The notes under the pieces are model-generated. The model was not told the origin of the DNA. It did not search any database and saw only the letters and a program-made list of their open reading frames with translations. This document shows positions 8,187 to 64,000 of a stretch of DNA of 64,000 nt, one piece after another. Made by a program: the position numbers and the translations under genes. The stretch's first letter is position 1. Each line of letters begins with the position of its first letter. Source of the stretch: an uncultured Gammaproteobacteria bacterium (GTDB taxonomy: Bacteria > Patescibacteriota > Microgenomatia > JAMCZE01); assembly GCA_964641255.1 (NCBI GenBank), contig CAZXMM010000001.1:473984-537983 (forward strand), given 5' to 3'.

Positions 8187-9317
8187 ATGAGAATTGGTAT
8201 TGATATTAGTCAAATTGTGTTTTCGGGTACTGGCGTTGCCATGTATACCCGCATGCTAATTGACGAGCTCCTTAAAATTGACCACCAAAATGACTATATT
8301 TTGTATGGTTCCAGTTTGCGACAAAGCGGGCAATTTAGGTCATTTGCCAAAAACAAAAAAGTGACTTCCAGTTTTTGGTCCATTCCGCCAACCCTTAACA
8401 CCATTCTTCATAACGATCTTCACACTGTGCCCATAGAGACATTTACAGGCCAACTTAATCTCTTCCATGCCAGCGATTGGCTCTCTCCTAAAACCCAGTG
8501 TCCCAAGGTCACCACTATTCATGATTTGGTCGTCTACCGTTCCCCAGAGTCGACTCACCCTGCCATTATCGCCACCCAGAAAAAGACGCTAGCGCTGGCT
8601 AAAAAGGAATGTGCCCATATCATCGTCGACTCACAGGCAACAAAGCAAGATTGTATGGAAATTTTAGGAATTCCAGAAAAAATGATGTCTGTTATTCATT
8701 TAGCTTCTGGCAATAATGCTGTTGCCTTTTCGCAAAGAAGTGAGGTGGAAAAAAAGGAAGCTGCAAGGCGTGCGTTAAAGACCTATCAAATTACAAAGCC
8801 TTACTTTTTCGCTGTAGGTACTAGGCAACCTCGAAAAAATATCGACCGTCTCATTGAAGCTTTCAAACTTTTTCCAAAAGACAGTTGTGAGCTGGTTATC
8901 GCGGGCAACTACGGTTGGGGTAACGAAATGAGCAATGAGCAATTGGCAATGAATAATATAAAAATTCTGGGATTCGTTCCAGAACAGGAGCTTGGAGGTC
9001 TTTATTCTGGTGCACTGGCTTTTGTCTACCCGAGTTTGTATGAAGGATTTGGTATTCCTATCTTGGAAGCCATGACTATTGGCACGCCAGTGATCACCTC
9101 CAATTTATCCAGCATGCCGGAAGCGGGAGGTAAAGCTGCTATCTATATTGATCCTTTTTCAGCGAGTGATCTGGCCGAGAAAATGAAATTCGTTTTGGAT
9201 TTATCATCCAGTAAGCGGGAAAAGTTGATTGATCTGGGCAAAACTCACGCTAAGACATTTACCTGGGAAAAAACAGCTAACGAAACCTTGAAAATTTATC
9301 GAGCATTTTCCTCATGA
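8187..9317 (+). CDS. Glycosyltransferase family 4
   Basis: '[29 protein letters not shown]' is the GT4 EX7E region. Confidence 0.85.
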   Translation: MRIGIDISQIVFSGTGVAMYTRMLIDELLKIDHQNDYILYGSSLRQSGQFRSFAKNKKVTSSFWSIPPTLNTILHNDLHTVPIETFTGQLNLFHASDWLSPKTQCPKVTTIHDLVVYRSPESTHPAIIATQKKTLALAKKECAHIIVDSQATKQDCMEILGIPEKMMSVIHLASGNNAVAFSQRSEVEKKEAARRALKTYQITKPYFFAVGTRQPRKNIDRLIEAFKLFPKDSCELVIAGNYGWGNEMSNEQLAMNNIKILGFVPEQELGGLYSGALAFVYPSLYEGFGIPILEAMTIGTPVITSNLSSMPEAGGKAAIYIDPFSASDLAEKMKFVLDLSSSKREKLIDLGKTHAKTFTWEKTANETLKIYRAFSS

Positions 9318-10006
9318 ATGTAGCTTCGCTATCAGTTTTTTTCCCGGCTTTCAATGAAGAGGATAATATTGCTCGCACCATTACTGAGGCGAAAAAAGTT
9401 TTAGTGCCACTTAAGATCCCCTGGGAGATTATTGTTGTTGATGATGGATCCTTTGATGGTACAGCCAGAGAAGCAGTAAAGACTAGTCAGGGAGACAAAC
9501 GGATTCGCGTTATTAGTCAAAAAAACGGAGGTTATGGAGCGGCACTGCAAACAGGTTTTAAGGAAGCCAAATATGACTGGATAGTTTATACTGATGCCGA
9601 CGGACAATTTGATTTTAACGATCTTCACAGGTTTTTAGAACTTGCTAAGAGCTACGACGCAATCTGGGGCTTTAGAATGAAACGCAATGACCCTTGGTAC
9701 CGAGCTTTGTTTGCCAGGGTTTGGCGCATATCGGTTCTATTCCTTTTTCATCTGCCGCTTAGAGATTTAGATTGTGGATTCAAACTGATTAAAAAATCAG
9801 TAATTGAACAGGTGCTGCCTCTTAGGTCCAGGCGGGGAGCCATGATTAATGTGGAACTAGCGGCAAAAATAATAAAGAAAGGGTTCCGGCTAGGCGAAGT
9901 CGGGGTCCCCCATCGCCCTCGCCAATTTGGAACGCCCACCGGCTTTTCTTTACCCGTCATTATTATGTCCTACCTCGATTTAGTCCGCTTGCGCTTTGTT
10001 TTATGA
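9314..10006 (+). CDS. GT2 polyprenol-phosphate sugar synthase (Dpm1/GtrB/ArnC-like)
   Basis: 'LSVFFPAFNEEDNI...WEIIVVDDGSFDGT...YTDADGQFD', 230 aa. This is the typical donor-synthesising partner of GT-C enzymes. Confidence 0.75.
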   Translation: MNVASLSVFFPAFNEEDNIARTITEAKKVLVPLKIPWEIIVVDDGSFDGTAREAVKTSQGDKRIRVISQKNGGYGAALQTGFKEAKYDWIVYTDADGQFDFNDLHRFLELAKSYDAIWGFRMKRNDPWYRALFARVWRISVLFLFHLPLRDLDCGFKLIKKSVIEQVLPLRSRRGAMINVELAAKIIKKGFRLGEVGVPHRPRQFGTPTGFSLPVIIMSYLDLVRLRFVL

Positions 10007-11400
10007 ACGCGATGAAAATTGTCGGGTGTTTGGTGGGTGGAGGAATTGTCGTGGTTTTAAGTTTTCTTCTCCCCTTTACCTATTGGCCAGAAATGCTGAC
10101 CTGGCCCTATCTCATGGGTTTGGGTTGGTTACCCTACCGGGATATCACAATTATTCATACCCCGCTTTTACTGTGGAAGATTGAGCTCTTTTACCGTCTG
10201 CTAGGGCCAACACTATTCACTCTTCATTTAGTCGGAACGCTGCTTATCATTGGAAACGCCGCTAGTATTGTCCTTTTTACCAATAAACTTACAAACCAGT
10301 TTGTAAGATCGCTCGCCGCCGGAGCCCTCTTTGTTCTCTTAAGCTTTTGTTTTCAGGGAAATACTGTCTGGTTTGATACCGCTTTGCCGCTTCTACTTGT
10401 TCCCCTCTGGTGGTTTCTTACCCGACTGGAGAAGAAACAAACTAGGCCAGTACTTTTAGTGGCCGGGACATTGTTAGGGTTAGCTTTTTGGACCAAACAG
10501 ACCGCACTCTATTTGTTTCCGGTTTTTGTTTTATTTTTTGGCTACCTACATTTTGTCAAAAAACTTCTATTTACGGTGGTTTTGAAAAGCGCTATTTGGA
10601 TTTCTTTACCCTGTCTTATAATTTCCCTACTTGTCCTTTCTCCCCTTCTGATATGGGGAGTGGAGGACGACTTTTTCTATTGGGCCATTCGTTTTGTATT
10701 TTTTAAACCGTTTGAAAGTAGTGGGAGCCATAGTTACGTTCTTTTACCCGCCCTGCACCAGCTAGGAATAGTCTTGGTACTCATGGGTATTGGGGTATAC
10801 CACTCTTTTCGGGCCAAAACATTACCCGTTCTTCTTGCCTGCGCCTTTATGCTGTTTTCCCTACTGTTTGCTTTCCCCCGGTTTGAATACTTTCATTTAA
10901 TTCCCAGTCTGGCTTTTCTGGCTTTAATCTTAGGGCTAGCCACCGGAATTTCCAACCGGTGGCTTAGTGTTGGTTTGGTTGGCCTAGTCCTTATGTTGGC
11001 CCTTTTTGTTGGCTGGCGTAACCACCAGTTTACACACACTTTTGTAGATCCTAGTACTATCAAGCTAGCAGATACTATTACAAAGAACTACCCGACTAAA
11101 AGTATCTATACCCTTAATGGTCCTGATCAGGTTTATTTTCTCGCCAAACGTCAACCCGCTTTTAAACCCTGGTTTGCTCAATTACCCTGGTATTTTAAAT
11201 ACTATGGAGAAGAAAGGTATCTGAGCGATTTTAAAGCAAGTGAACCGGAAATTATTATCTATGTTCCGTACAGGGCTGTAGCCGATCACGGACTCGGGGC
11301 CTTTGTTCCCGAGATACTCTTGAGCTATGTTTCAAAGCGCTACACTAAGGTGGAGGAAATTGACGGTGTTTATATATTAAGACAGGTTCGTCATGACTAA
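10003..11400 (+). CDS. Polytopic membrane protein, GT-C-like
   Basis: 465 aa, many TM helices. 'IIHTPLLLWK' resembles the hPPL motif. Confidence 0.4.
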   Translation: MNAMKIVGCLVGGGIVVVLSFLLPFTYWPEMLTWPYLMGLGWLPYRDITIIHTPLLLWKIELFYRLLGPTLFTLHLVGTLLIIGNAASIVLFTNKLTNQFVRSLAAGALFVLLSFCFQGNTVWFDTALPLLLVPLWWFLTRLEKKQTRPVLLVAGTLLGLAFWTKQTALYLFPVFVLFFGYLHFVKKLLFTVVLKSAIWISLPCLIISLLVLSPLLIWGVEDDFFYWAIRFVFFKPFESSGSHSYVLLPALHQLGIVLVLMGIGVYHSFRAKTLPVLLACAFMLFSLLFAFPRFEYFHLIPSLAFLALILGLATGISNRWLSVGLVGLVLMLALFVGWRNHQFTHTFVDPSTIKLADTITKNYPTKSIYTLNGPDQVYFLAKRQPAFKPWFAQLPWYFKYYGEERYLSDFKASEPEIIIYVPYRAVADHGLGAFVPEILLSYVSKRYTKVEEIDGVYILRQVRHD

Positions 11401-14292: not shown

Positions 14293-14299
14293 TCTAGAG

Positions 14300-42954: not shown

Positions 42955-44312
42955 TGGCAAAAGACAAAATCATTACTGCTATTGATGTAGGTTCTTCAAA
43001 GGTGACCACGGTTATTGCTACTTACCTAAAAGACGAAAAGCTTTCAGTTATTGGAGTCTCTAATGTTTTGTCTCGAGGTATTCGTAAGGGGCAGGTGGTA
43101 GACATCGAGGAGGCAGTAGCTAGTATTTCTGAAAGCGTTGATGCCGCCGAGAGAATGGCGGGGGTGTCAATTGGTACCGCTTTTGTTTCTATTGGCGGGT
43201 CGCATATTACCAGCCAAAACAGCAAGGGAATTGTGGCGGTGTCACAGCCAGAGGGTGAGATTACTGCACCTGATGTTGAACGGGTGATTGAGGCGGCGGA
43301 GGCAATTTCGCTGCCCTCTTCTAGGGAGATTCTTCATGTTCTGCCCCGTGATTTTACTGTAGATGGCCAAGCAGGTATTAAGGATCCGTTAGGGATGACG
43401 GGGGTAAGGCTGGAAGTAGATACTCAGATCGTGACTGGAGCTACAACCTCAGTTCGTAATTTGGCCAAATGTGTCGCGGAAGTAGGCATTGACGTCGAAC
43501 GGGTAGTATTTTCCGGGTTGGCGTCATCAGAAGCGGTGTTATCCTCGACAGAAAAGGAATTAGGTGTTGTGCTAGTAGATATTGGGGCGGGAACTACCGA
43601 TGTGGCCATTTGGGTTGATGGGGCACTGTCGTATTCGTCGGTTTTGCCCATGGGTGCCAGAAATGTCACTAACGATATTGCTGTCGGTTTAAGGGTGAGC
43701 CTGGAAAGCGCAGAAAAAATTAAACTGCTTTTGGGACAAATTCCCAAGGCCTTGCCAGTCGTTGCTAGTGAAGGTGAGGTTAAAAGTCACAAACTACCGG
43801 ACGAACTAGATCTCTCTGCGTTAAATCTGCCAGAAGATTTGAAAAAAATTTCCCGGAAGACCCTAATGGACGGCATAATAAAGGACCGTTTGTTAGAAAT
43901 GTTTGTATATGTGGGTCAAGAGATTCAAAAAAGTGGTTTCGGGGGTATGACCCCATCTGGCGTAGTGATTACGGGTGGGGGGGCTTTGACCGCTGGGATA
44001 ATCGAAGCCTGTCGCCAGCGGTTGGCCATGCCCTGTCGTGTGGGATCGGCGATTGGTCAGACAGAATTGTATGGGCAGACCTCGCCGCTGTCTGGTCTCA
44101 CCGATGAAATAACTGGCCCCCAGTTTTCTACAGTTATTGGTCTTATCCAGTTTGGTTTGCAGCGGCCAATTAATTTACGGACCAAGAGGGGGAGCGGTCA
44201 GTCACAATTTAGCTTGCCAAACTTAGGGGGCTTTGGTAAGATGGCCGAAAAGCTGCCCCTGGGGAATGCTACCGCTAAAATAGCAAAACTCCTCAAGTCA
44301 TTTTTGCCATAA
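42954..44312 (+). CDS. ftsA: Cell division protein FtsA
   Basis: Actin-like ATPase motifs '[16 protein letters not shown]' and '[13 protein letters not shown]'. Confidence 0.9.
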
Positions 44313-45484
44313 TGCTTATTAAACCTGATCTTACTCGTTTCGCAAAAATCAAAGTAGTGGGAGTTGGTGGTGCCGGGGGTAACGCAGTATCTTCAATGAT
44401 TGCCTCGGGTTCGATTCATGGAGTGGATTTTGTCGCTATCAATACCGACGCCCAAGTATTACTCGGTAATCCGGCTCCCACTAAAATTCAAATTGGGGAA
44501 AGTCTCACCCGAGGCCTTGGCTCAGGAGGAAATCCTGAAACTGGAATGAAGGCGGCGGAAGAATCAACCAAGAAGATCGAAGAGAAAATTGCTGATGCTG
44601 ATATGGTCTTTGTGACGGCCGGTATGGGTGGAGGAACTGGGACGGGGGCCTCACCGGTAGTAGCTGATATTGCTCGGAAAGCGGGTGCCTTGACGGTGGC
44701 CGTTGTTACCAAACCGTTTGCATTTGAGGGGGCTGCTCGGGCGGTAGCGGCTGAGGAAGGTATTGAAAACCTTAAAGACAAAGTTGATGCCCTAATTGTC
44801 ATCCCTGATCAAAGAATTCTTGAAGTTGTTGATAAAAAAGTAACCCTCATTGAGGCTTTTAAGATGGCCGATTCGGTACTAACTGCCGGTGTCCAGGGTA
44901 TTTCTGATCTGATTGTTATGCCAGGACTGGTGAACGTTGATTTTGCTGACGTTAGATCCATTATGACTAACGCCGGATCAGCTCTCATGGGTATTGGAAC
45001 GGGTAGTGGAGATAATCGGGCGGGAATAGCTGCGAGACAAGCTATTTCTTCACCACTACTGGAAATTTCTATCGATGGAGCCAAGGGTGTTCTCTTTAAC
45101 ATTATTGGTGGCCCGGATATGACAATGGCCGAGGTGGGAGAAGCGGCAGAAATTATTCGGGCGGCGGCTGATGCCGATGCCAAGATAATTTTTGGGGCCA
45201 CGATTGACGAAACCATGATTGACCAGCTCAAAATTACGGTAATTGCGACCGGATTTGACGAGAACAGGCAAAAGTTACGTGACCTTCGCTACGAGCGCTC
45301 CGTTAGTACTGCCCAGCCTTACTCTGGTCCCACTGGGGTAGTGAGTGATACCACAACTGTTAAGACGTCCCAACCAAACCAGATCCAGGATGATGATTTG
45401 GATTTACCAAAACAAGCGACTCCTCTTCCCGAAGGCTTTGATGAAGAAATCGATATCCCCGCTTTTCTTAGAAAAGGTAAATAG
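44312..45484 (+). CDS. ftsZ: Cell division GTPase FtsZ
   Basis: '[18 protein letters not shown]' and tubulin signature '[17 protein letters not shown]'. Confidence 0.95.
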
Positions 45485-51821: not shown

Positions 51822-52973
51822 ATGACGTATCTCTTTCTTCTAGGAAATGCTCCTGAGCTTGCGACTGCCGAGCTGGCAGCGGTCCTAAGTAGGTATAAAG
51901 TTACTCCCGTCTTCGCGTCAGTTGACCCCAGACTCCTAAGGGTGAGTGTCGATAAACCCCTAACTCCTGAAATATTAAATGTCTTGGGGGGGACAATAAA
52001 GGTAGTCGAAGTCGGAGCTGATTTTTCTGATCTTAAGGGTGCTCTTAAAGCTATTGAGGCTTTTTTAAGAACCTTTGATAAGCGAATCGTTTTTACTGTG
52101 TCGATTCATCCCTCAATTCTTAAAGCGGTCCCTCCTAACATGGAGAAGACCCTTAAAAAGAAACTAGAAGCTGATGGTTACAAGGCACGCTTTGTAGCAC
52201 CACAACGGCCTGAGTGGAATCTCTCCAGCGTGGTAGTTACCAAGCAAAAAGTTATTGAATTTGTTTTAATCCCGGGAGAACTTAGTGAATTTACCCTGGG
52301 ACAAACCTATTGGGTCCAAGAATTTGAGGAGTGGGGGAAAAGGGACTATGGTCGTCCTGCCGCAGAAGCTCACTTAGGTATGCTGCCCCCTAAAGTTGCT
52401 CGGATGATGGTAAATCTTGGATTCTCGAGTAAGATTGTCGATCCCTTCTGTGGAGCCGGAACAATTGTCGCTGAAGCGTTGGTTCTTGGAGCTCAAGCAA
52501 AGGGGATTGACCAAGATCCCAATCAGGTGAAGCGAACCAAAGATAACCTAGAGTGGCTGTGCACCGAATTCAATCTTCCTAAGAACTATCAAGTCATCCA
52601 AGGGGATGCCCGCAGAGCTACCCAACTATTAAAAACTACTGTCGGCTCAATTGTTACCGAGCCATTCTTAGGTCCCAATGACAGTCAAAATAAGGTCGTA
52701 GCATCACAAAAACTCCACAATTTAATGCAGGAACTCATTGGTCTCTATATTCGCTGTCTGGAAAACTGGAAAGAAATGTTATCTCCAGGGGGCAAAGTAG
52801 TGATTGCTCTGCCGAGCTTTACTCAGTCAAACTATATAGAAGAACATCTCGTGAAAACAATCGTTGACAAAGCAAATCTTATGGGCTATAGTTTGCTCCA
52901 AGGTCCGTTTCCTTACTTTCGTGCCCAGGCCGTAGTAAGAAGAAACATCTGTGTATTTGTTAAAAATAAGTAA
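51822..52973 (+). CDS. Class I SAM-dependent RNA methyltransferase with an N-terminal THUMP-like domain (Trm14/RlmL/Trm11-like)
   Basis: 'DPFCGAGTIVAEALVLGAQAKGIDQD' is motif I. 'TEPFLG' occupies the (D/N)PPY position. It sits between rplU and rpmA. Confidence 0.55.
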   Translation: MTYLFLLGNAPELATAELAAVLSRYKVTPVFASVDPRLLRVSVDKPLTPEILNVLGGTIKVVEVGADFSDLKGALKAIEAFLRTFDKRIVFTVSIHPSILKAVPPNMEKTLKKKLEADGYKARFVAPQRPEWNLSSVVVTKQKVIEFVLIPGELSEFTLGQTYWVQEFEEWGKRDYGRPAAEAHLGMLPPKVARMMVNLGFSSKIVDPFCGAGTIVAEALVLGAQAKGIDQDPNQVKRTKDNLEWLCTEFNLPKNYQVIQGDARRATQLLKTTVGSIVTEPFLGPNDSQNKVVASQKLHNLMQELIGLYIRCLENWKEMLSPGGKVVIALPSFTQSNYIEEHLVKTIVDKANLMGYSLLQGPFPYFRAQAVVRRNICVFVKNK

Positions 52974-54883: not shown

Positions 54884-57652
54884 TTAATTTATTGGGGGCA
54901 ATAAATGCTGAATCCCCCTACTAATCCACTCAGCTTTAAAAAGCTCTCCAGCTTCATAAAGCGTTCTTGATTCTTGCTGCCAGAGCTGGGCGTCATAAAG
55001 ATTAGCGGCTACGGGATTCCAAATTGGAGTAATTTTTTTAGCTGAGTCAATATATCTATCCGCCTTCTCCACCTGATACAGTACGTAAGAAGGGGCCCTT
55101 TGGCCACTATATTTATGGTAAAGATTGTTTAGAATGTCCCAAAAAAAGTAATTTGCAGCTATCAAGTTTTGTCTAACCTGGGAATTCGATTGTTGTCTTA
55201 GCAGCCAAGACAACTCGTTTTGTTGGTAGGTAAGGTCGTAACTTATACTCAGCCATTTTGATCTATTAGTAATGGCATTAACATAAGTGTTGACTTTGTT
55301 AGAAATTATTTTGGCTCTGGCACCAGGTACCCGCGCTATAGCTTCGTTAAATCGGTCAAGCAGAGAGGTGATGGTTTCCTCTGTAAACAGTTGTGAGGGA
55401 TTAGCAACAAAGGCAAACTTTTTGTTTTGCACAGTTCCCGAAGAAATTGTGCCGCCGGTTTCGCGAATAAGCGTTTGCTGGTTGTAAGCAGCAAAGTAAC
55501 TTTCTAATTTATAGCTGCCCGTTCCCGTGCCCTCCAGCTGGATTGTGTAAGTCTGAGGGCTGGGGTTTTTAACAAAAACCGCTTGTTGATTAATATTAAT
55601 TCCAACTTCAACACCACTTCCGTCATAGACTTTAATCTTGGCTGGAGAGTGAATTAAGAACAGTAAGATGGAGTCAGTAGCTGGCCCGCTAATCTCAATC
55701 GGCCCAGAAAGCGAGAATGTAGCTAAAACAGTCGCTAGCCCGTGGTTACTGCTGAAATAATTAGTGTGGGTAACTGGAATTTTTTCATCAGACACGTCAC
55801 TAAGTGATGAACTGGTTGCTAATACTGTGCCATCACCAGTGTTGGTTGTAGCTGACACGAATTTACCGTCAGTCCAAAGCCCCAGCCTTTGCTCAAAGGC
55901 TAGTGGACTGCTTACTTGATAGGTACTGTCGGTGGGTGTATTTAGCCCAGACAGGGTTTTAAGATTTTGTTTCAAATCATCTGAAGGGGCTTGCAAGGCC
56001 ATAAGGGTTGGGTTTTGAGCTTGTGAGCTCATTTGTGAATAGGGCTTACCATCAATGTAGTTAAATATTGGCAAAATATCTTTAACCGAGGGAATATTTG
56101 CCTGAACGATATCTTTGCGAGTGAGATTGGTCCCTCCGGTCGCCCTGATGGCAACCTCCTCAATCACTCTGAGAATTGGATTCGGCTCATCAATGACTCC
56201 CCCCTCCCAAAACTTATAGGCCCCTAAAGCGCCCTTGACTGGTGACCCGCCGGTAATTAGCTTATCAATATGGTCAGCACAACCGGAAATTTTTTCGTAG
56301 CAGTAGATGGCAACAATGCCGCCCAGACTGTGGCCTACAATATTCGCTTTTTTACCAGGACTTTGGCTTTCAACTGTAGATTGAAGATAAGTTTTAAGTT
56401 GCTGAGCAGAGCTGGCTACAGGCTGGCGCCAATCGTAAGCAAAAACAAAAAGATTTTGATTTTCCACCAAACCGGAATTCTTAAGGGTCTTAAGCAGCGG
56501 CTGGTAGTAATCATCGGTGAAGAGGGGCGTAAGTATCCATTCGTCTGGAGTGGTAGCACCCTTTTCTACTAAGCCTTTGTAAGACCAGCTACCACCCAAC
56601 CCTGGTAAAAAAACCACCGGGTTCGCGGTGGGGGGCGGTGGTGGGGTTACATTCACGTCTGCGTAGTATATTCCTAGACCTTCGACACCAACAAAGACCC
56701 TTCCATCTTTGACATCCAGCCCCAAGGTATTTCTTGTTCCCCAAGCTGGATCCTGAATATTTTCCCAAGTCTCCGCCCCATCCCTGCTCATCCAAAGCCC
56801 ACCGCCATAATTTAGCCTACTAGCAAATAGGTTTCCATTTTGGTCCTGAGCTAATCGAAACGCCGGGCTATTGATACCATTACTTTTGATAGTCCAGTTA
56901 CTACCCTCATTGACCGATTTATAAATACCAGCGCTGGGCGGATACTGAGATGCATAAAGGACACTTTCATTATTTTTGTCAATTAGTACATTAGAGTAAA
57001 CTCTGTTTAAAGGTAGTAAGTTCCAGCTTGTGCCGTTGTCGGCACTTTTAAACAAATTAGGATCCGCACCAGCGTATACTCTCAGGGAGTTCTGGTCAAT
57101 TGAAATTTGGCCACTATTTTGGTTTCCGAAGGCTTGAATTTTTGACCAATTAGCACCTCCGTTTGTAGTTTTATAAAGCCCTGACTCAGGACTCCCGTTT
57201 GTATTGCCTATCCCGACGTAGAGTACGCTTTGGGTTTGCGGATGGATTTCAACGGATCTTGGGTAGTCAGAAGTAAAAATTTTGTTCCAGTTTGCTCCCA
57301 TGTTGGGTGACGTATAAATACCACCGCCCCATAAGCTGATTGCAATAGTATTCTCTGGTCCAAGTGAAATCCAGTTAATATCATGGCCGCCTACAAGGTC
57401 ACCCTTAACACTGGTCCAGGATTCACCAAAATCGTCTGTTTTAAGCAGGTCATATGTATCGCTATTGTCTGACTGTATTGCTGCATATAGTGTTAAGCTG
57501 TCATAAACCGATCCTCTTATGAAAGAAGTTGCTCCGTTGAATTCATAAGATGGGATCCATGTAACTGCTAGTATCTGTTTAGGAAAGAAAAAAATAATGA
57601 TAAGGAGAATTGTTAAAAGGTAGCAAATGGTGATTGAAGTAAATTTGATCAA
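54884..57652 (-). CDS. Secreted multidomain protein: N-terminal BNR/Asp-box beta-propeller, Pro linker, LCAT-like alpha/beta-hydrolase (lipase/acyltransferase) domain, and C-terminal domain of unknown function
   Basis: N-terminal signal/TM. At least six S-x-D-x-G-x-(T/N)-W repeats ('TDDFGESWTSV','SPNMGANWNKI','TTNGGANWSKI','SADNGTSWNLL','SVNEGSNWTIK','SRDGAETWENI'). Then 'TPPPPPTANPVVFLPGLGGSW', 'AYDWRQ' and nucleophile elbow 'GHSLGG', the hallmark of LCAT/PGAP1-type lipases. Confidence 0.6.
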   Translation of the reverse strand: MIKFTSITICYLLTILLIIIFFFPKQILAVTWIPSYEFNGATSFIRGSVYDSLTLYAAIQSDNSDTYDLLKTDDFGESWTSVKGDLVGGHDINWISLGPENTIAISLWGGGIYTSPNMGANWNKIFTSDYPRSVEIHPQTQSVLYVGIGNTNGSPESGLYKTTNGGANWSKIQAFGNQNSGQISIDQNSLRVYAGADPNLFKSADNGTSWNLLPLNRVYSNVLIDKNNESVLYASQYPPSAGIYKSVNEGSNWTIKSNGINSPAFRLAQDQNGNLFASRLNYGGGLWMSRDGAETWENIQDPAWGTRNTLGLDVKDGRVFVGVEGLGIYYADVNVTPPPPPTANPVVFLPGLGGSWSYKGLVEKGATTPDEWILTPLFTDDYYQPLLKTLKNSGLVENQNLFVFAYDWRQPVASSAQQLKTYLQSTVESQSPGKKANIVGHSLGGIVAIYCYEKISGCADHIDKLITGGSPVKGALGAYKFWEGGVIDEPNPILRVIEEVAIRATGGTNLTRKDIVQANIPSVKDILPIFNYIDGKPYSQMSSQAQNPTLMALQAPSDDLKQNLKTLSGLNTPTDSTYQVSSPLAFEQRLGLWTDGKFVSATTNTGDGTVLATSSSLSDVSDEKIPVTHTNYFSSNHGLATVLATFSLSGPIEISGPATDSILLFLIHSPAKIKVYDGSGVEVGININQQAVFVKNPSPQTYTIQLEGTGTGSYKLESYFAAYNQQTLIRETGGTISSGTVQNKKFAFVANPSQLFTEETITSLLDRFNEAIARVPGARAKIISNKVNTYVNAITNRSKWLSISYDLTYQQNELSWLLRQQSNSQVRQNLIAANYFFWDILNNLYHKYSGQRAPSYVLYQVEKADRYIDSAKKITPIWNPVAANLYDAQLWQQESRTLYEAGELFKAEWISRGIQHLLPPIN

Positions 57653-57712
57653 CGTATAAATTACTATAAGAGTACTATATTATTAGTAGAATCTAATTTA
57701 ACTAATGTCAAG

Positions 57713-58477
57713 ATGTCAAAAATTTCTGTAGTTATACCCACATATAATAGTGAAGATCTACTGGGTCGATGTTTGTCGAGTATTAAGTGGGCAAACGAAA
57801 TTATTGTTATCGACATGGGTTCCACGGACAAAACTGTAGAAATTGCTAAAAAGTTCGGCGCTAAAATATACAAGCGTATCCCGCTTAATGGTAATTTTGA
57901 TCTTAACCGAAAGTATGGAATGCAACTTTGTAAGGGCGACTGGATTTTAAAGTTGGATAGTGACGAGGTTTTGAGCAGCGAGCTTCAAGATGAGATTAAG
58001 ACCTTCTTGAAAAATGACACAAAAGAAAAAGCTAATGGATTTTATTTCTATAATAGACTTTTTTGGTTTGGGCTGCAGATAAAGCATGGTTGTGTTAAGC
58101 CAAAATCTCATGAGTTGCGCTTAGTTAGAAACGGGCACTGGCAATATGAACCGTTTTGTTTTCACCAGCTAATAACCGTGAATGGGAAAGTTGGTTTCTT
58201 TAAGAATTACTACGACCACTATAACTATAGAACGGTTTCCGAATTTATCCAAAAAACAAACAATTACACTTCGCTTGATTCAAAAATAATCGCTAGCGCA
58301 AAGAGATATGGGTTTACACAGAGTATATTCTTTCCGTTTGCCACTTTTTTTCGATTATATTTTTTCCAAAAAGGATTTATTGACGGTAATATAGGATTTA
58401 TTTCCAGTTTTCTATTTTCTTTCTATAATTTTGTGCTTAAGACCAAGGTTTGGGAGCAACACAACTGCAAGCAATAA
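57713..58477 (+). CDS. Glycosyltransferase family 2
   Basis: 'ISVVIPTYNSEDLLGRCLSSI...IIVIDMGSTDKT..LDSDE'. Confidence 0.8.
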   Translation: MSKISVVIPTYNSEDLLGRCLSSIKWANEIIVIDMGSTDKTVEIAKKFGAKIYKRIPLNGNFDLNRKYGMQLCKGDWILKLDSDEVLSSELQDEIKTFLKNDTKEKANGFYFYNRLFWFGLQIKHGCVKPKSHELRLVRNGHWQYEPFCFHQLITVNGKVGFFKNYYDHYNYRTVSEFIQKTNNYTSLDSKIIASAKRYGFTQSIFFPFATFFRLYFFQKGFIDGNIGFISSFLFSFYNFVLKTKVWEQHNCKQ

Positions 58478-58478
58478 T

Positions 58479-59351
58479 TTATTTGTAAGCAAATATAATT
58501 ATATCCTGGAATATACCTTGCTCAAACGGTGCTTTTAGTGGGGTCGTTAGAAGGTATGAAAATTTATTGTTCTCGAGAATTCTTAGAAATTTAGACAAAT
58601 CATCAGGTTTTTCTGAATGGTGATGATGATATTCTGTCACTATTTTTTTAATAAGTGGGAGCCGCTTACTTTTCTGTAGTTCTGCAAGAACTACGTCTTC
58701 AGCCCCCTCAATATCTAACTTTAGAAGATCAACCCTTCCTTTTATGAAGGGGGATAGGGTTTTGGCCTCAACAGTTTTAGGCCTGTTGATTGCTTTTCGC
58801 ATGGAATAAACACTTTTATAGAGACTATTTAATCCGGATCCAGGTTCAGTTGGGTTTGAGTAAAATTTTATTCGAGTGTTCTTATCATAAACTGCATAGT
58901 TATAAATCTTGACATCGCGTAAGTTGTTTTCTTCAACGTTTCGCTTAAGTAGTCTAAAGGTAATAGGATCAGCCTCAAAAGTAATTATTTTAGCTGTGGG
59001 GTAAAGCCACTTAAAGTAAAGTGCAGTATCGATGTTTCCGCCGCAATCGAATATAGTTGGACTTTTAGAATCTGGTTCAAAATAGTATTCATTTCGAATA
59101 TATGATTCCTCAAACAAATGAATATAGTGAATCAGACTATAAAAGTTGATGGTATAGTCAAATATTTGAACGCTTTTAAGTTTAAAACCAAGTATAATCT
59201 CGAATAGGATATGCTTTGCACATAGCTCAAAGTAGGTTTTAAGGATTAGCCATTTTTTGGGTTTGATTGGGGCGGGTAGTTGTATCCAGATTGATATGCA
59301 ATTTCTGAAAAAGCTTTTGGTTGATTGGAGTAATATGAATAGACTATTCAT
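58479..59351 (-). CDS. FkbM-family methyltransferase
   Basis: 'FDCGGNIDTALYFKWLYPTAKIITFEADPITFRLLKRNV' fits the FkbM domain. The long N-terminal extension may not be real. Confidence 0.65.
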   Translation of the reverse strand: MNSLFILLQSTKSFFRNCISIWIQLPAPIKPKKWLILKTYFELCAKHILFEIILGFKLKSVQIFDYTINFYSLIHYIHLFEESYIRNEYYFEPDSKSPTIFDCGGNIDTALYFKWLYPTAKIITFEADPITFRLLKRNVEENNLRDVKIYNYAVYDKNTRIKFYSNPTEPGSGLNSLYKSVYSMRKAINRPKTVEAKTLSPFIKGRVDLLKLDIEGAEDVVLAELQKSKRLPLIKKIVTEYHHHHSEKPDDLSKFLRILENNKFSYLLTTPLKAPFEQGIFQDIIIFAYK

Positions 59352-59368
59352 GGTTGTTTGATTTTACT

Positions 59369-60502
59369 ATGAAAATAGCGATAGTACGAGGGGACTATTT
59401 ATCCTCATGGGAAATATCAAATTATTTGAGTCTTCTTAAGAATAATGAGGTTACTATCTTCATTGGGAGAGCACCAGTGTATAAAGTGGCAATACCGTCA
59501 AGTTTTAAGGTGGTTTCTTTAATTTCCCCAGCTGATTTAAACTTCGGAAAGGTTTCGAGAATAAAAATGTCAATACTTAATAGATTATTTATTGACGCAC
59601 ATTTGTTATTTGGTCTTGAGCAGAGGCTAAAAGACTTCGATGTAGCTTATGTGTCCGAAACGTTTTACGGTTTTACCCAACAATGTATATGGGCGAAAAA
59701 CAAAGGATACTTGAAAAGTGTAGTTAGTCACGCTAGTGAGAACACGCCTTTTAATAATGAAGGAATCTGGGGAAGAAAAGCTTTCAAACAAAGAGCTTTA
59801 AAAGAGGTTGATAAATTTGTAGCAATTACGGAGGGCGCTAAAAAGGTGTTGTTACAAGAGGGCTGTGATCCTAAGAAAATCGTTCGGCTGCAGCCAGGTG
59901 TTGATCTGGAAGTTTTTAAGCCAGTTAAGGTCGTTAAATATCGTAATCTTGATAAGAATAAAAATGTGAAATTACTTTTTGTGGGTAGGTTAGTTCCAGA
60001 AAAGGGAATTCTTCAAATTATGGAAAAGTTTTCCAATCTTTATAAAAAACATCCTAATATCGAATTAATTATTGCAGATCGGGGCCCCTTAGCGCCTCTA
60101 GTTGAGGAGTTTGCAAAAAGCCATAAAAATGTTTTCTATTTAGGAAGAATTGACGATTATTCAAAAATGAACCAGCTGTATTCCTTGTGTGACATATATT
60201 TACATTATTCTATAGGTTCCAGTACCTGGGTAGAACAATACGGTTTCACTCCGATTGAGGCAATGGCTTGTGGGCTTCCGGTTCTTGGTCTTGATAAGGG
60301 ATCGGTCAAAGAAGTAGTAAGAGAAGGCGGATTTGTTGTAGATGCAAAAAAGTATGATAGTATACTGGAAAAGCTAATACTGGATTCAGGACTTAGAAGT
60401 AGGACAGGTAAAAAAGCGCTAAAATTAGTTAATAAAAGATATAACGCACTTCAACATGGCAAGGATCTCGAAAAAATCTTCAGAGCTACACTGTCAGCAT
60501 AA
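59369..60502 (+). CDS. Glycosyltransferase family 4
   Basis: 'MKIAIVRG' N-terminus and 'FTPIEAMACGLPVLGLDKGSVKEVV'. ATG at 59369 is preferred to the upstream TTG at 59354. Confidence 0.8.
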   Translation: MKIAIVRGDYLSSWEISNYLSLLKNNEVTIFIGRAPVYKVAIPSSFKVVSLISPADLNFGKVSRIKMSILNRLFIDAHLLFGLEQRLKDFDVAYVSETFYGFTQQCIWAKNKGYLKSVVSHASENTPFNNEGIWGRKAFKQRALKEVDKFVAITEGAKKVLLQEGCDPKKIVRLQPGVDLEVFKPVKVVKYRNLDKNKNVKLLFVGRLVPEKGILQIMEKFSNLYKKHPNIELIIADRGPLAPLVEEFAKSHKNVFYLGRIDDYSKMNQLYSLCDIYLHYSIGSSTWVEQYGFTPIEAMACGLPVLGLDKGSVKEVVREGGFVVDAKKYDSILEKLILDSGLRSRTGKKALKLVNKRYNALQHGKDLEKIFRATLSA

Positions 60503-61259
60503 CTGGCAGAAATTCTTTTCTATCCCCAAGTGTACGCTCGAGAAATGTACCAACTGTGGACTCATAAGAACAGTCAGTAAAAAAAAGACGCTTAATGAGT
60601 ATAGTGAGACTGATATCGAAGAAGCCGTCAAACTTTATTGGCTCCGTGGCGAGGAATGGAGAGCTTTTTCTAGAAAATTTATTGATAACCTTCCTACCAA
60701 AAAGGGGAGACTTTTAGATATAGGCTGTGGCTCAGGATATGTAGTTGCTGAAGCTAACAGGAGAGGCTTAATAGCCACTGGAATCGATCCGTCGAAAGGT
60801 ATGATCTATTTTGGTAAGAAGAGAATTGATCCTAATCTCATTGCTATTCCCCTTGAAAAATACCACCCCAAGGATAAGTTTGATTATGTAACGATGAATC
60901 ACGTTTTGGAGCACATTACGGAATTGTCTACGTGTTTAAAACAAATTAAGAGCTTACTGAAGTATAATGGAAAACTTATGGTGGCTTGTCCTAATATTAA
61001 CTCCCTAACTTTTAGAATTTTTCAAGAAAGATGGTACCCACTTTCTCCATGGGAGCATATATGGCAATTTACGCCGGAAACCTTGGAAATGGTGATAAAG
61101 AATGAAGGATATACAATAAAGAAGCGTGTAGTTAACAGCATGAGCTATAATCCCAAAAATCCCATAAAGAAGCTAGCCTTTATTATCCTTACTACTCTAG
61201 CAAACATTTCAGGCTATGGCGATCAAATAATAATTGTCGCTCAAAAAGATGAAAAGTAA
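60456..61259 (+). CDS. Class I SAM-dependent methyltransferase with an N-terminal Cys-rich (zinc-ribbon-like) segment
   Basis: 'LLDIGCGSGYVVAEANRRGLIATGIDPS' is motif I. 'CTLEKCTNCG' is upstream. Start uncertain (47-bp overlap with the preceding gene). Confidence 0.65.
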   Translation: MARISKKSSELHCQHNWQKFFSIPKCTLEKCTNCGLIRTVSKKKTLNEYSETDIEEAVKLYWLRGEEWRAFSRKFIDNLPTKKGRLLDIGCGSGYVVAEANRRGLIATGIDPSKGMIYFGKKRIDPNLIAIPLEKYHPKDKFDYVTMNHVLEHITELSTCLKQIKSLLKYNGKLMVACPNINSLTFRIFQERWYPLSPWEHIWQFTPETLEMVIKNEGYTIKKRVVNSMSYNPKNPIKKLAFIILTTLANISGYGDQIIIVAQKDEK

Positions 61260-61971
61260 TCTCCAAGTAATCATTGTTGATTTTCGTAGCACGAATATCA
61301 TTTCTCCGTTAGTAAAAAAATTAACTCCATATCTTAAAAGCGTGATTGTCATAGACAACAACAAGATAAATCGTGGATTTGCTGGAGGAGCTAATCAGGG
61401 GTTTAAAAAAGCCGCTAAAAGTAAACCTTCTTACTACCTTCTTCTTAATCCCGATCTTAAATTTTCTCCCACAATTATCTCGACGCTTATCAAAAACGGC
61501 AGTGACATAGTCGGTCCAGTTCTTAAATTCAAACGGCATGGAAATTGGGTTTATGACTTTGGTGGTAAGGTTAACTGGTTCTTAGGAAGAACCACTCACA
61601 TTGAGACCCCTACCCTTGATTTAGGCATGGCCAAAAAAAATATCGATTATGTCAGTGGGGCCTGCATGCTGATTAAAAAAGAAGTCATTGATAAGATCGG
61701 ATATTTCGATGAGCGCTTCTTCATGTACTTTGAAGATGTAGATTTTTGTTTGAGAGCCAAAAAAGCCGGTTTTTCGATTGCGGTAGAGTCAAAAGCCGTC
61801 GTTGAACATGAAATCAAGGAACACCGAGATAGTAACGATGCCACAAAAAAACAATATGCTTTTGCCAGCAATCTCATTTTCGCTCGTAAGTGGGTTCCCG
61901 TTTTTTTTCAGCCCCTTGCCACTATTTATCTTCTTTGGCTCGCGATTAGGATATCTGCCCAATCTCGATGA
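61234..61971 (+). CDS. Glycosyltransferase family 2
   Basis: 'GFAGGANQGFKKA...LLNPDLKF...MYFEDVDFCLRAKKAGF' is a GT2 rhamnosyltransferase-like pattern. Confidence 0.7.
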   Translation: MSLKKMKSNLQVIIVDFRSTNIISPLVKKLTPYLKSVIVIDNNKINRGFAGGANQGFKKAAKSKPSYYLLLNPDLKFSPTIISTLIKNGSDIVGPVLKFKRHGNWVYDFGGKVNWFLGRTTHIETPTLDLGMAKKNIDYVSGACMLIKKEVIDKIGYFDERFFMYFEDVDFCLRAKKAGFSIAVESKAVVEHEIKEHRDSNDATKKQYAFASNLIFARKWVPVFFQPLATIYLLWLAIRISAQSR

Positions 61972-62710
61972 AAAAGTGGCAGCCCTATCTTTCGGTAGTA
62001 ATCCCTGCCTTTAACGAAGCGGCAAATTTCAAAGCCGGGGTCCTAGCCCCAGTCTTTACATTTCTTAAAAAGCAAAAATTTACCTGGGAAGTGATTATTG
62101 TTGATGATGGTTCCAGTGATAACACTTTTAAAACACTTCAAGAATTTAGTAAAAGACAGCAAGGTTGCAGAGTTATTCATATTAAACACGGTGGTAAAGC
62201 TTTTGCAGTTCAAGCAGGAATGCTAGCGGCAAAAGGTAATATCCGTCTCTTTACTGACTTTGATCAATCTACCCCCCTAAAACATTGTCTAGACTTTATC
62301 GAGGCTCACAAGCAGGGAAGCGATGTAGTAATTGGGATTCGCCATGCGTCTACTAAAACCCCTACTAAGGAAGACACTCTGTTTCGCAGATTTCGTAGTT
62401 GGGTATTTGTCGTGATTGTCAGAGTGGTACTTGGGGTTAAGGCCAGGGATACCCAGTGTGGTTTCAAGTCCTTCACTGCCGCTTCCGCAAAAAAGCTTTT
62501 CAGTTCGCTTCCTATTACCACTAGAAATAGGGAGGGGGGGCGTATATGGGGGCATTTGATGTGGAGCTACTATACCAAGCAAAAAAGCATGGCTATAAGA
62601 CAACAGAAGTACCCGTAAGCTGGATAAAGATAGAGTCGACTCGTTTAAATGCCTGGAGAGAGCCTATCAAAATGCTTGTAGATGTTTTTCGTATGAAGTT
62701 ATCAAATTAG
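61968..62710 (+). pseudogene. GT2 polyprenol-phosphate sugar synthase (Dpm1/GtrB-like) interrupted by a frameshift at a G7 homopolymer (62534-62540)
   Basis: The N-terminal 'LSVVIPAFNEAANF...WEVIIVDDGSSDNT...FTDFDQSTP' is in one frame. The conserved C-terminus 'AFDVELLYQAKKHGYKTTEVPVSWIKIESTRLNAW' is in another frame after the poly-G. One extra G would restore a continuous roughly 247-aa protein. Confidence 0.6.
62534..62540 (+). repeat. Homopolymeric G7 tract inside the GT2 coding sequence
   Basis: Counted directly: aaatagGGAGGGGGGGcgt, with G at 62534-62540. It lies in an AT-rich (about 33% GC) region. Confidence 0.9.
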
Positions 62711-62714
62711 CTTC

Positions 62715-63314
62715 ATGAAACAGCTAGCCTTCATTCGCCACTATAAACTAGCTTATCCCTTCGATCACTGGTCAAATCTAACGGTCAAGCAGTTTGTTAA
62801 CTTTACTGAGGGAAGAATTGATCCCGAGATTGACCAGTCTCTAGGCAAGTTTCTTGTTAATAATCCGTTGAGCAAGACGGCAGATCTAATTATATGTGGA
62901 AGCCTACGTAGATCAATTCAAACAGCAGAAATAATCAGTAAAAGTTTTGCAAACAACCCTCCACTAATATCCAATCAATTATTTGATGAAATTCCACAAA
63001 TAATAATGGAAAAGTTATCTGAGCCACAGTTTGAAGCAATGAAGCTTAATAAAAAGCTGCAAGTCAAAAAGAAGCGAGTATTAAATACTAGAGAAAAGCT
63101 CAGTCGGATAATGAAGATAGATAACTATTTAGCAACTTTGCCAGAATCCAAAATATTAATTGTTACCCACAGTTACCTTATTGGACTTCTGAATTATTGG
63201 TATGCGGTAATAGATAGGAACCGAACAACTTTTAATGTCAATGATGCCGAACATAACGAGCTGGGTGGTGTATTGAAGGGATTTACCGTAAGAATACCTG
63301 ATGAGAACAGATAA
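62715..63314 (+). CDS. Histidine phosphatase superfamily protein (phosphoglycerate-mutase-like branch)
   Basis: N-terminal 'AFIRHYKLAYP' (RHG-like motif) and C-terminal 'ILIVTHSYLIGLL' (catalytic His). Confidence 0.5.
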   Translation: MKQLAFIRHYKLAYPFDHWSNLTVKQFVNFTEGRIDPEIDQSLGKFLVNNPLSKTADLIICGSLRRSIQTAEIISKSFANNPPLISNQLFDEIPQIIMEKLSEPQFEAMKLNKKLQVKKKRVLNTREKLSRIMKIDNYLATLPESKILIVTHSYLIGLLNYWYAVIDRNRTTFNVNDAEHNELGGVLKGFTVRIPDENR

Positions 63315-63317
63315 GTG

Positions 63318-64000
63318 TTATTGGTTATTGCTCTTAATGATTGTTGTTTCTCCGAGGTATACACTATTACTGCCTTCGGGTTTTAGCCCTTCTATTACAG
63401 AAGTTAAGCCCTTGAGCCGAGTTGCATCCTTTAAGCCGGTCTTCTCATCATCCCATACAATGTAATAAGTTTTTTCAATTGGCTCCAGAGGTAATGAACG
63501 TAGCATGATTGGCTGCAATGCTAGGCCCCTGGGTGTAAAGCAGTGGTTATCTTTAATATCTTGAGTGGTAAGGGGCCAACGCTCCTCAATATAGATATTG
63601 CGATTGTGCCAAAACTCAAGCCAAAACGCGTTGGGGTAATGGCTATAGCTCCCCTCTATTATCAGGCAGATAGTTTTATCCTGACTTTCGTTGTGGAGGT
63701 ACTTAAATATAGGTTCAAAACCGTAGCCCGAGGGAAAGCCAGTAACATATTGCCATCTGTCTTCCTCAGGAAATGCCGCAGTTGGAGGATTAAAAAGTAG
63801 GCCATAAGTAAACTGCAGGGGCAGCAGAAGGAGAAGTAGTCCTATCGACAGTGCCATTACCTTTGACTTTCTGACAACTCCACATATTAGGTAGGCTGCG
63901 GAGATTACAAAATAGGGAGCTACAAAAACAATATAGCGGGGGAAATAGATTCTGGCGGCCAAAGAAAAGGCGAGAATGGGAAGAATACCAAGGAGGAACA
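63318..64000 (-). CDS. C-terminal part of a larger membrane protein (likely a GT-C glycosyltransferase); the ORF continues upstream beyond the window edge
   Basis: The frame stays open to position 64000 ('...FLLGILPILAFS' precedes the listed TTG). A hydrophobic segment is followed by a roughly 150-aa soluble C-terminal domain. Confidence 0.4.
   Translation of the reverse strand, partial: FLLGILPILAFSLAARIYFPRYIVFVAPYFVISAAYLICGVVRKSKVMALSIGLLLLLLPLQFTYGLLFNPPTAAFPEEDRWQYVTGFPSGYGFEPIFKYLHNESQDKTICLIIEGSYSHYPNAFWLEFWHNRNIYIEERWPLTTQDIKDNHCFTPRGLALQPIMLRSLPLEPIEKTYYIVWDDEKTGLKDATRLKGLTSVIEGLKPEGSNSVYLGETTIIKSNNQ

Follow-up and report, generated by a model that had tools for sequence, protein, structure and literature searches.

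A polyprenyl-phosphate glycosyltransferase gene split at a poly-G run in an activated-sludge Microgenomates bacterium, probably by recent slippage

A gene at 61968-62710 (+ strand) of the window, the whole 64,000-nucleotide stretch of DNA analyzed here, is broken at a run of Gs that is one base too short, and these coordinates are best annotated as one disrupted gene. As judged from its sequence and a predicted structure, it is a Dpm1/GtrB/ArnC-like polyprenyl-phosphate GT2, predicted to transfer a sugar to polyprenyl phosphate. The explanation we favor, with some reserve, is that an incidental poly-G run recently contracted by one base through slippage and left the gene OFF, and that the run did not evolve as a switch. 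There is no evidence that the run was selected as one.

The original prediction held that a one-base deficit in poly-G splits this gene and that one additional G repairs it, and both parts of this statement were borne out. The sequence GGGGGGG occupies exactly 62534-62540 (+), and one added G (G8) unites the following parts into a single 247-aa ORF.

61968..62618, + strand: truncated GT2 ORF, 216 aa, with M1-G191 native and then 25 out-of-frame residues before a premature TAA at 62616-62618
62522-24 and 62528-30, + strand: two TAG codons that close the downstream frame directly 5' of the tract
62534..62540, + strand: G7 homopolymer, which in the G8 reading gives GAG GGG GGG GCG = E189-G190-G191-A192
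62540..62710, + strand: 3' remainder of the gene, read in the other frame (A192-N247 and the stop codon)
62546..62710, + strand: downstream ORF in the other frame, 54 aa, with the conserved C-terminal part

The start ATG of the split gene overlaps the stop of an upstream GT2 gene (ATGA, 61968-61971), and the truncated ORF product is identical to a protein already in the databases (P0002). Since the downstream frame is closed by the two TAG codons, the change of frame must fall within the tract, which lies 76% into the gene. A relative that is 80% identical (P0001) served as the reference for placing the change. Between ...TTRNRE, which ends with GAG at 62532-34, and AYMGAFDVE, which starts with GCG at 62540-42, there are 5 nt here versus 6 in that relative, and thus exactly one base is missing within the G run. 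Repair by removal of two Gs (G5) was rejected, as it yields a protein one residue shorter than the nearest relative.

The portion 3' of the break has kept the features of a working gene. The near-invariant YMGAFDVE motif follows directly 3' of E189-G190-G191-A192, and the segment 62540..62710 (+) contains no internal stops and no further lesions. All of the invariant residues G195, A196, E200, and W219 lie within it, as do the near-invariant D198, V199, A205, V217, M236, D239, and R244. In a database protein search, the repaired 247-aa protein aligned over 96-100% of its length with intact homologs of 243-269 aa (n>100).

Several lines of evidence agree with the earlier assignment of the gene to the Dpm1/GtrB-like GT2 enzymes: a Pfam domain, the closest structures, which are ArnC, GtrB, and the Pyrococcus furiosus Dol-P-Man synthase (PfDPMS), and PMT_2 neighbors. 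The protein matches PF00535 (Glycos_transf_2) over residues 9-159 (E = 3e-21, 76.4 bits versus a cut-off of 23.3). The AF2 model of the repaired protein has a pLDDT of 91.7, and its top Foldseek matches are ArnC, GtrB, and PfDPMS, with TM 0.71-0.78 over ~240 columns. These three enzymes account for all of ranks 1-25 (E = 2e-15 to 9e-12, TMq 0.61-0.78, 235-251 columns), and the sequence search was concordant with Foldseek on the identity of the protein as a polyisoprenyl-phosphate glycosyltransferase. GtrB of Synechocystis (5EKP/9NYC), ArnC of Salmonella (9BHC/8VXH), PfDPMS (5MLZ), and eukaryotic DPM1/ALG5 have the GT-A fold and PF00535 in common with the repaired protein. With GtrB/ArnC/DPMS-type enzymes the repaired protein shares the DDGS motif (D47), D97-x-D99, the RDxQCGFK motif, an amphipathic interface helix (138-155), and a structural match over the whole length, although sequence identity to them is only 19-24%. 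Residues D47, D51, D97, D99, and Q100 are invariant across 52 sequences.

The repaired protein differs from the matched enzymes in its C-terminal region. GtrB, ArnC, and PfDPMS have 2-4 C-terminal transmembrane helices, whereas no transmembrane helix was found in the 247-aa protein (maximum 19-residue Kyte-Doolittle hydropathy 1.37), which in this respect resembles the TM-less human-type DPM1. At 247 aa it is shorter than the chains of the matched PDB entries, in which 301-355 residues are resolved (322-374 aa as deposited). The last helix of the AF2 model (231-246) is amphipathic. The truncated product is deprived of the last 56 residues, which include a helix (196-207), a strand (212-216), the final helix (231-246), and four invariant positions.

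Other glycan genes of the window bear on the likely role of the enzyme and are given here.

61234..61971, + strand: upstream GT2 gene in the same operon, not a paralog of the split gene
62715..63314, + strand: histidine-phosphatase-like gene that separates the GT2 from the GT-C, absent from this position in the nearest relative (L002)
63318..64000, - strand: 3' part of a PMT/PMT_2 (GT-C) gene of 525 aa, which extends past the window end
9314..11400, + strand: second, intact GT2 + GT-C module, with a Dpm1-like GT2 (9314-10006) followed by a PMT_2 GT-C (10003-11400)

The PMT/PMT_2 gene lies ~700 nt downstream of the split GT2, and of 76 related loci, 30 have a PMT_2 GT-C beside the homolog of the split gene, frequently as its immediate neighbor. 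This arrangement can be likened to the gtrB-gtrC and arnC-arnT pairs, and the genomic context suggests the GT-C as the probable user of the lipid-linked sugar from the split GT2. The GT2 of the second module is 31% identical to the repaired protein over 210 residues. The GT2 genes at 57713-58477 and 61234-61971 were considered as paralogs of the split gene and rejected on comparison.

Before the break is interpreted, it has to be asked whether the G7 allele is real. The same G7 occurs in a Logan contig from run SRR14932608, which over 5,033 + 21,173 nt (26,206 nt) does not differ from the window at any position. This run is an Illumina data set from activated sludge in Uruguay (PRJNA509305; supplement of PMC13403791). 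Since G7 is present in a contig from an Illumina run and ~60 other genes of the window look intact, a consensus error is unlikely, and the indel error that the original prediction offered as its alternative has lost much of its appeal. We infer that G7 is the majority allele from these two assemblies, which were probably built on the same reads; consensus contigs cannot reveal a minority G8 subpopulation.

We accordingly regard it as quite improbable that the true sequence is G8, with an intact gene and a sequencing or assembly artefact at the tract. Indel errors arise most commonly at homopolymers, notably in long-read assemblies (PMC9600527, as a general point), and the 950-kb source contig may reflect the use of long reads. 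The window sequence also has the appearance expected of a truly intact gene, with a perfectly conserved downstream frame and no other lesions, and the two assemblies, with possibly shared reads, are not fully independent. These points have to be set against the G7 in a k-mer-based Logan contig identical over 26 kb and against the state of the other homopolymers, since the four other G7/C7, 11 A8/T8, and 51 A7/T7 runs of the window disrupt no ORF. A scan of +/-1 edits at all window homopolymers of >=5 likewise found no other homopolymer-split gene, the remaining candidates being junctions of neighboring ORFs or short ORFs overlapping longer ones, and the ~60 other genes examined with Pfam all appear full length. 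Illumina consensus errors are in general rare at homopolymers of 7-8 nt.

If G7 is real, comparison with relatives indicates that the break is young. All 69 relatives with the motif and the >100 database homologs have an uninterrupted single ORF. Relative to the 80% relative, the downstream fragment has a pN of 0.117 and a pS of 0.709, and the upstream part a pN of 0.14 and a pS of 0.83, so that the former is no less constrained than the latter. Because the downstream fragment is free of lesions and has kept this signature of purifying selection, the break would be very recent. In having a single-base indel in a short homopolymer of an accessory gene, with an intact paralogous module elsewhere, this locus resembles ordinary homopolymer frameshift pseudogenes and polymorphisms; unlike ordinary pseudogenes it shows no further decay, and if it is a pseudogene it must be an extremely young one. 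Decay occurs elsewhere in the GT2 family, as a 199-aa homolog (P0115) is truncated in three ENA assemblies. This homolog was rejected as a second instance of the present break since it is truncated elsewhere and has no continuing frame. It may be observed that an OFF snapshot of a true phase-variable locus would look identical, with no lesions and purifying selection still visible.

The tract itself is not shared. At this site the nearest relative (80% identity) has GAG ACG GGA GCC, from which the tract is separated by three substitutions towards G; these three changes are also readable as selection for the tract. Among the 69 relatives the run length at the site is <=3 in 64, G5 in 4, and G8 in 1, the last belonging to an independent lineage (L011) in which the run is in frame. 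The comparison with related genomes that the original prediction had proposed thus finds no such tract in the nearest relative, and among the 69 relatives it is absent from 68. We found no ON (G8) allele in ~5.8 billion clustered proteins, where the repaired query met only the truncated product and the 80% relative, and in GTDB representative genomes and JGI metagenomes no match was closer than 55% identity. When the two flanking genes were looked up by exact match, each led to the two contigs already known from the truncated gene, both of them G7 (OFF).

Base composition and run statistics do not set the tract apart either. The surrounding DNA had been described as about 33% GC and the tract as conspicuous within it, but the measured GC is 42.3% for the split gene, 47% for the tract +/-100 nt, 40% for 61000-64000, and 43.3% for the window. 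G/C runs of 7 occur five times in the window, as four G7 and one C7, and runs of >=8 are absent. Markov models of order 1 and order 3, simulated for the 64-kb window, predict 7.3-7.7 runs of >=7, and for runs of >=6 the observed number is 16 versus 26-27 expected, so the run count is within chance expectation and the tract is hardly conspicuous. No over-representation of poly-G/C tracts was found in the 64 kb covered, where they are somewhat depleted. The non-random feature of the tract is its coincidence with the frame break. The other four G7/C7 runs (23869-23875, 36825-36831, 43977-43983, and 51986-51992) are read in frame and encode GG or PP; the genes that contain them are ftsA and those for a Mur ligase-NUDIX protein, a DUF4012 protein, and a methyltransferase. 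Their location in genes with essential or housekeeping roles speaks against a high mutability of G7 in this organism.

These results bear directly on the proposal that the locus is an evolved slipped-strand contingency locus, in which G7/G8 toggling would control the synthase and a GT-C-dependent decoration of the surface glycan and of which we would have caught the OFF phase. We consider this unlikely, though it has real points in its favor. The ORF is ON with G8 and OFF with G7, which is the part of the phase-variation prediction that stands, and the tract meets the cut-off of >=7 G/C for candidate phase-variable genes (PMC6321876). The target is of the classical kind, a gene for glycan modification within a glycan cluster of low GC (38% versus 43% for the window); no secondary lesion has accumulated, and the downstream part is still constrained. 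The creation of the tract by G-ward substitutions and the in-frame G8 at the same site in the independent lineage may be counted on the same side. What does not hold up is the expectation of a run that is enriched and conserved. G/C runs are somewhat depleted and otherwise occur in essential or housekeeping genes, the tract is missing from nearly all relatives, and a length of G7/G8 is at the low end of what is functional; in Campylobacter, tracts of 9-10 are typical, switching has been demonstrated for those of >=8, and at the cut-off length the mutability may be <1e-5 (PMC6321876). The tract is also far from the 5' end of the gene, and the protein clusters and both flanking-gene contigs yielded no ON allele. 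A literature search found no paper on SSR phase variation in Patescibacteria/CPR, and thus no precedent for it. A phase-variable switch is therefore neither shown nor refuted, and the comparative sequence evidence leans against an evolved contingency locus.

Known phase-variable systems show the same mixture of likeness and difference. In LOS/capsule genes of Campylobacter jejuni such as cgtA/wlaN, Neisseria lgtA/C/G, and Haemophilus lic/lgtC, an intragenic G run likewise sets the frame of a glycan transferase. The gtrABC O-antigen glucosylation modules of Salmonella and Shigella phages likewise combine a lipid-phosphate sugar synthase with a GT-C in an accessory, switchable module that decorates the surface glycan. 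Phase variation of gtrABC is epigenetic, acting through Dam/OxyR at the promoter. Switching there does not involve a repeat in the coding sequence, and the host here is a Gram-positive-type CPR bacterium, in which no homolog of the GtrA flippase was identified. The genomes of the pathogens named above carry tens of tracts, mostly of 9-10, which are over-represented, concentrated in surface genes, and of demonstrated length heterogeneity (PMC6321876), whereas here a single gene is affected, its run of 7 (7/8) is just at the PhasomeIt cut-off, runs are not over-represented, and the tract is not conserved in relatives.

A further question is whether full-length enzyme could be made from the G7 sequence by -1 ribosomal frameshifting or transcriptional slippage, or by the reassembly of separately made fragments. 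G_GGG_GGG is a formal X_XXY_YYZ heptamer (frame 0 (GA)G GGG GGG, 62534-62540), and both Gly-tRNAs would be able to pair again after a -1 shift, the direction required. For the separate fragments, an SD-like AGGGAGG is present at 62529-62535, with GGAGG 10 nt upstream of the ATG (62546) that opens the 54-aa ORF; this ATG, however, is merely the conserved Met of YMGAFDVE. No significant stimulatory RNA structure was found in the 80 nt after the tract (-18.8 kcal/mol, z = -1.55, with 12/200 shuffles folding as well), and the fold with the tract included was also not significant (z = -0.8). Since all relatives and homologs have one uninterrupted ORF, the frameshift is not conserved. Slippage is poor on G-only heptamers and G runs in comparison with A/U runs, and heptamers of G alone are not known to be efficient. 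Taken with these points, recoding is very hard to credit here.

Recent slippage in an incidental run remains the explanation we favor. Under it, the lineage-specific run would have arisen from the GGG codons of Gly190-Gly191, before YMGAFDVE, in the gene for a soluble Dpm1/GtrB/ArnC-like polyprenyl-phosphate hexose synthase. Replication slippage, in evolutionary terms very recent, would then have converted G8 to G7, and translation would leave the native frame after residue 191 and stop 25 codons on. The gene would be OFF in the dominant genotype of the activated-sludge Microgenomates (Patescibacteria) population. The neighboring PMT_2 GT-C would presumably be deprived of its lipid-linked sugar donor, with the loss of one accessory glycan decoration; at least one other GT2 + GT-C module of the genome stays intact. 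We infer that the truncated product is inactive, that the synthase is coupled to the GT-C, and that G8 is ancestral. The run would be an incidental mutational hot spot, from which reversion is possible in principle.

It is doubtful that the G7/G8 run functions as a slipped-strand switch and is the first SSR phase-variable surface-glycan gene to be described in CPR (Patescibacteria, Microgenomates). If it were, an episymbiotic or ultra-small bacterium would be varying a GT-C-installed glycan in a wastewater population, for example in phage escape or host attachment. As it stands, the finding concerns a single accessory glycosyltransferase gene, one of many glycan genes, that was frameshifted recently, and the case shows that a homopolymer break alone does not justify the label of phase variation. 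Should mixed G7/G8 populations exist, contingency-locus biology, classically that of host-associated pathogens, would be extended to an uncultivated environmental lineage with a reduced genome, and the module of a soluble Dpm1-like synthase and a PMT_2 GT-C would be under fluctuating selection, plausibly from phage or host-cell contact.

The glycosyltransferase gene at 61968-62710 (plus strand) contains a GGGGGGG run at 62534-62540, in the context ...AAT AGG GAG GGG GGG CGT ATA TGG.... As predicted, its two halves lie in different frames, one in an ORF running from ATG 61968 to a stop at 62616-62618 (216 aa) and the other in an ORF at 62546-62710 (54 aa), and adding one G gives a single ORF of 247 aa (the repaired protein). 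In alignment with P0001, the closest intact relative protein (80% identity, 246 aa), the segment ...TTRNRE ends at GAG 62532-62534 and AYMGAFDVE... starts at GCG 62540-62542, leaving 5 nt between them in the split gene versus 6 (ACG GGA) in P0001. TAG codons at 62522-62524 and 62528-62530 close the downstream frame. Exactly one base is therefore missing within the G run, and the in-frame state is G8. Repair to G5 was also considered and would remove one residue.

The repaired protein scores 76 bits against Glycos_transf_2. Hundreds of Patescibacteria proteins of 243-269 aa align with 96-100% of its length at 44-58% identity; they come from the Microgenomates group (Amesbacteria, Woesebacteria, Daviesbacteria, Roizmanbacteria), and JGI names some of them dolichyl-phosphate beta-glucosyltransferase. 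The best PDB matches of its AlphaFold model (pLDDT 91.7, alignment of 52 sequences) are ArnC, GtrB and the Pyrococcus furiosus Dol-P-Man synthase (TM 0.71-0.78 over ~240 columns), in agreement with polyisoprenyl-phosphate glycosyltransferase matches at the sequence level, and D47, D97, D99 and Q100 are invariant in the alignment. Just 3' of the split gene, in convergent orientation, lies a 525-aa PMT/PMT_2 GT-C gene, and of 76 related loci 30 have a PMT_2 homolog, which often abuts the GT2 directly. Because of these family and structural matches, the invariant residues and the PMT_2 GT-C neighborhood, the Dpm1/GtrB-like assignment has good support. One caveat is that the enzyme would be soluble: the repaired protein has no transmembrane helix, unlike the ArnC, GtrB and P. 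furiosus structures. GT2 and GT-C are separated by a histidine-phosphatase-like gene (62715-63314, 199 aa, weak PF00300 match); in L002, the locus of the nearest relative, the GT-C gene directly follows the GT2, and a search of the 76 related loci gave no homolog of the intervening gene.

Tract, split, G8 repair and enzyme family thus stand as originally predicted, but the accompanying figure of about 33% GC is wrong: GC is 42.3% in the gene, 47% within 100 nt either side of the tract and 43.3% in the window. Nor is the tract unusual as such. The window holds five G/C runs of at least 7 (four G7 and one C7, none longer) versus 7.3-7.7 expected from order-1 and order-3 Markov simulations. For runs of at least 6, 16 were observed versus 26-27 in the same whole-window simulations, a shortage that fits mild counter-selection of G/C runs better than a role for them as switches.

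The encoded G7 product keeps residues 1-191 followed by 25 foreign residues. It lacks the modeled helix 196-207, strand 212-216 and helix 231-246, and with them the invariant G195, A196, E200 and W219 and the near-invariant D198, V199, A205, V217, M236, D239 and R244; it is presumably without activity.

P0002, the truncated protein as it stands in the database, is encoded on a 950,062-bp NCBI contig and on a Logan contig of SRR14932608, an Illumina run that sampled Uruguayan activated sludge (supplement of PMC13403791). Across 5,033 and 21,173 nt this Logan contig shows no difference from the window, and it has the same G7. A consensus error at the tract is unlikely given the G7 in the Illumina-run contig, the absence of any other split gene when +/-1 edits were made at all homopolymers in the window, and the complete appearance of the ~60 window genes whose ORF structure and Pfam matches were inspected, although the two assemblies may share the same reads. 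The four remaining G7/C7 runs of the window are in frame, encoding Gly-Gly or Pro-Pro in a DUF4012 gene, ftsA, a methyltransferase gene and a Mur ligase-NUDIX gene. The exact FtsZ protein (44312-45484) occurs on three public contigs and the glycan-cluster genes at 61249-63314 (a 240-aa GT2, the truncated GT2 and the His_Phos-like gene) on only two of these; the third either ends earlier or comes from a strain whose glycan cluster differs.

Measured against the relative at 80% identity, the gene shows saturation at synonymous sites (pS 0.71-0.83) but a pN of 0.14 upstream of the tract and 0.117 downstream, and no second lesion was found in the downstream fragment. Purifying selection has therefore acted on that fragment as it has on the upstream part, over essentially the whole divergence; the break must be very recent, reversible or not real. 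Production of the C-terminal part from the G7 template, by -1 frameshifting or by separate expression of the 54-aa ORF, seems highly improbable: the run is a formal -1 slippery heptamer (G_GGG_GGG) with an SD-like AGGGAGG 5' of it, and the short ORF has its own GGAGG-N10-ATG, but downstream RNA structure is not significant (z = -1.55 and -0.8), no relative shares the split, and the ATG encodes the conserved Met of YMGAFDVE.

A phase-variable switch, as originally proposed, has arguments on its side. The ON/OFF logic is valid (G8 in frame, G7 truncated), a glycan-modifying gene is a classical type of target, and the tract reaches the PhasomeIt cut-off of at least 7 G/C (PMC6321876). We consider an evolved switch possible but doubtful. 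G/C runs are not enriched in the window, and the others occupy housekeeping genes, so that a hypermutable G7 would be costly. The nearest relative reads GAG ACG GGA GCC at the site, without a tract, and among 69 relatives with the motif the G run is at most 3 in 64, G5 in 4 and G8 in 1, a long run in only one. The tract comes 76% of the way through the gene and, at G7/G8, is short compared with Campylobacter tracts, which are mostly 9-10, with switching shown for at least 8 and mutability at the cut-off length perhaps below 1e-5 (PMC6321876). No ON allele was found in the protein database, and the two contigs on which the flanking genes lie both have the OFF allele. The tract itself is the one positive indication of an evolved switch. 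The single G8 relative (L011 4561-4590, JAUSIY010000050.1, an independent Microgenomates-like MAG) reads AGG GGG GGG TAT, in frame, where its intact ortholog encodes the homologous Gly-Gly, the sole other long run among the 69. A 199-aa homolog, P0115, is truncated after ...FFLAKK in three separate ENA assemblies (loci L081-L083), none with a continuing homologous frame, and is apparently a different copy that decayed in another lineage.

The split gene is the final gene of a glycan operon (GT2, FkbM-type methyltransferase, GT4, SAM methyltransferase, GT2) in a cluster of 38% GC. GC across 56001-64000 is 38-39.5%, versus 43-46% in the dcw/cell-division region, and this stretch may be a glycan island that varies or was acquired. 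Glycan assembly also takes up a very large region at 1-24350, which includes a DUF2079 membrane protein, several GT4 and GT2 genes, a hexapeptide acyltransferase and a DUF4012 protein.

Further features of the window
521-1711, 5547-6863 and 10003-11400: PMT_2 GT-C genes, within 1-24350
9314-11400: second intact module, Dpm1-like GT2 (9314-10006, 230 aa) followed by the PMT_2 GT-C gene at 10003-11400
14231-17434: 1067-aa ORF with O-antigen-ligase/Wzy_C (residues 251-482) and PMT_2 GT-C (670-813) domains, an unusual fusion
21721-22371: Bac_transf initiating sugar transferase, within 1-24350
35180-36913: MurC-like Mur ligase (Mur_ligase, _M, _C) with C-terminal NUDIX (residues 442-524); the sole C7 run of the window (36825-36831) is in frame at codon 549, just past the NUDIX match
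54884-57652, minus strand: 922-aa protein with N-terminal Sortilin/BNR-type repeats and an LCAT/PGAP1-like alpha/beta-hydrolase domain (residues 343-487)

Most probably, then, a real and very recent slip from G8 to G7 has shifted the frame and, in the dominant genotype, inactivated an accessory polyprenyl-phosphate sugar synthase. The tract itself seems to have arisen incidentally, through the use of GGG codons at a Gly-Gly dipeptide, and to have slipped afterwards. The GT2 of the second module is 31% identical to the repaired protein across 210 residues, RDxxCGFK motif included, and the genome has at least two Dpm1-like GT2 and PMT_2 modules. With this second intact module and several further PMT_2 genes in the window, the loss of one GT2 and GT-C module is plausibly tolerated.
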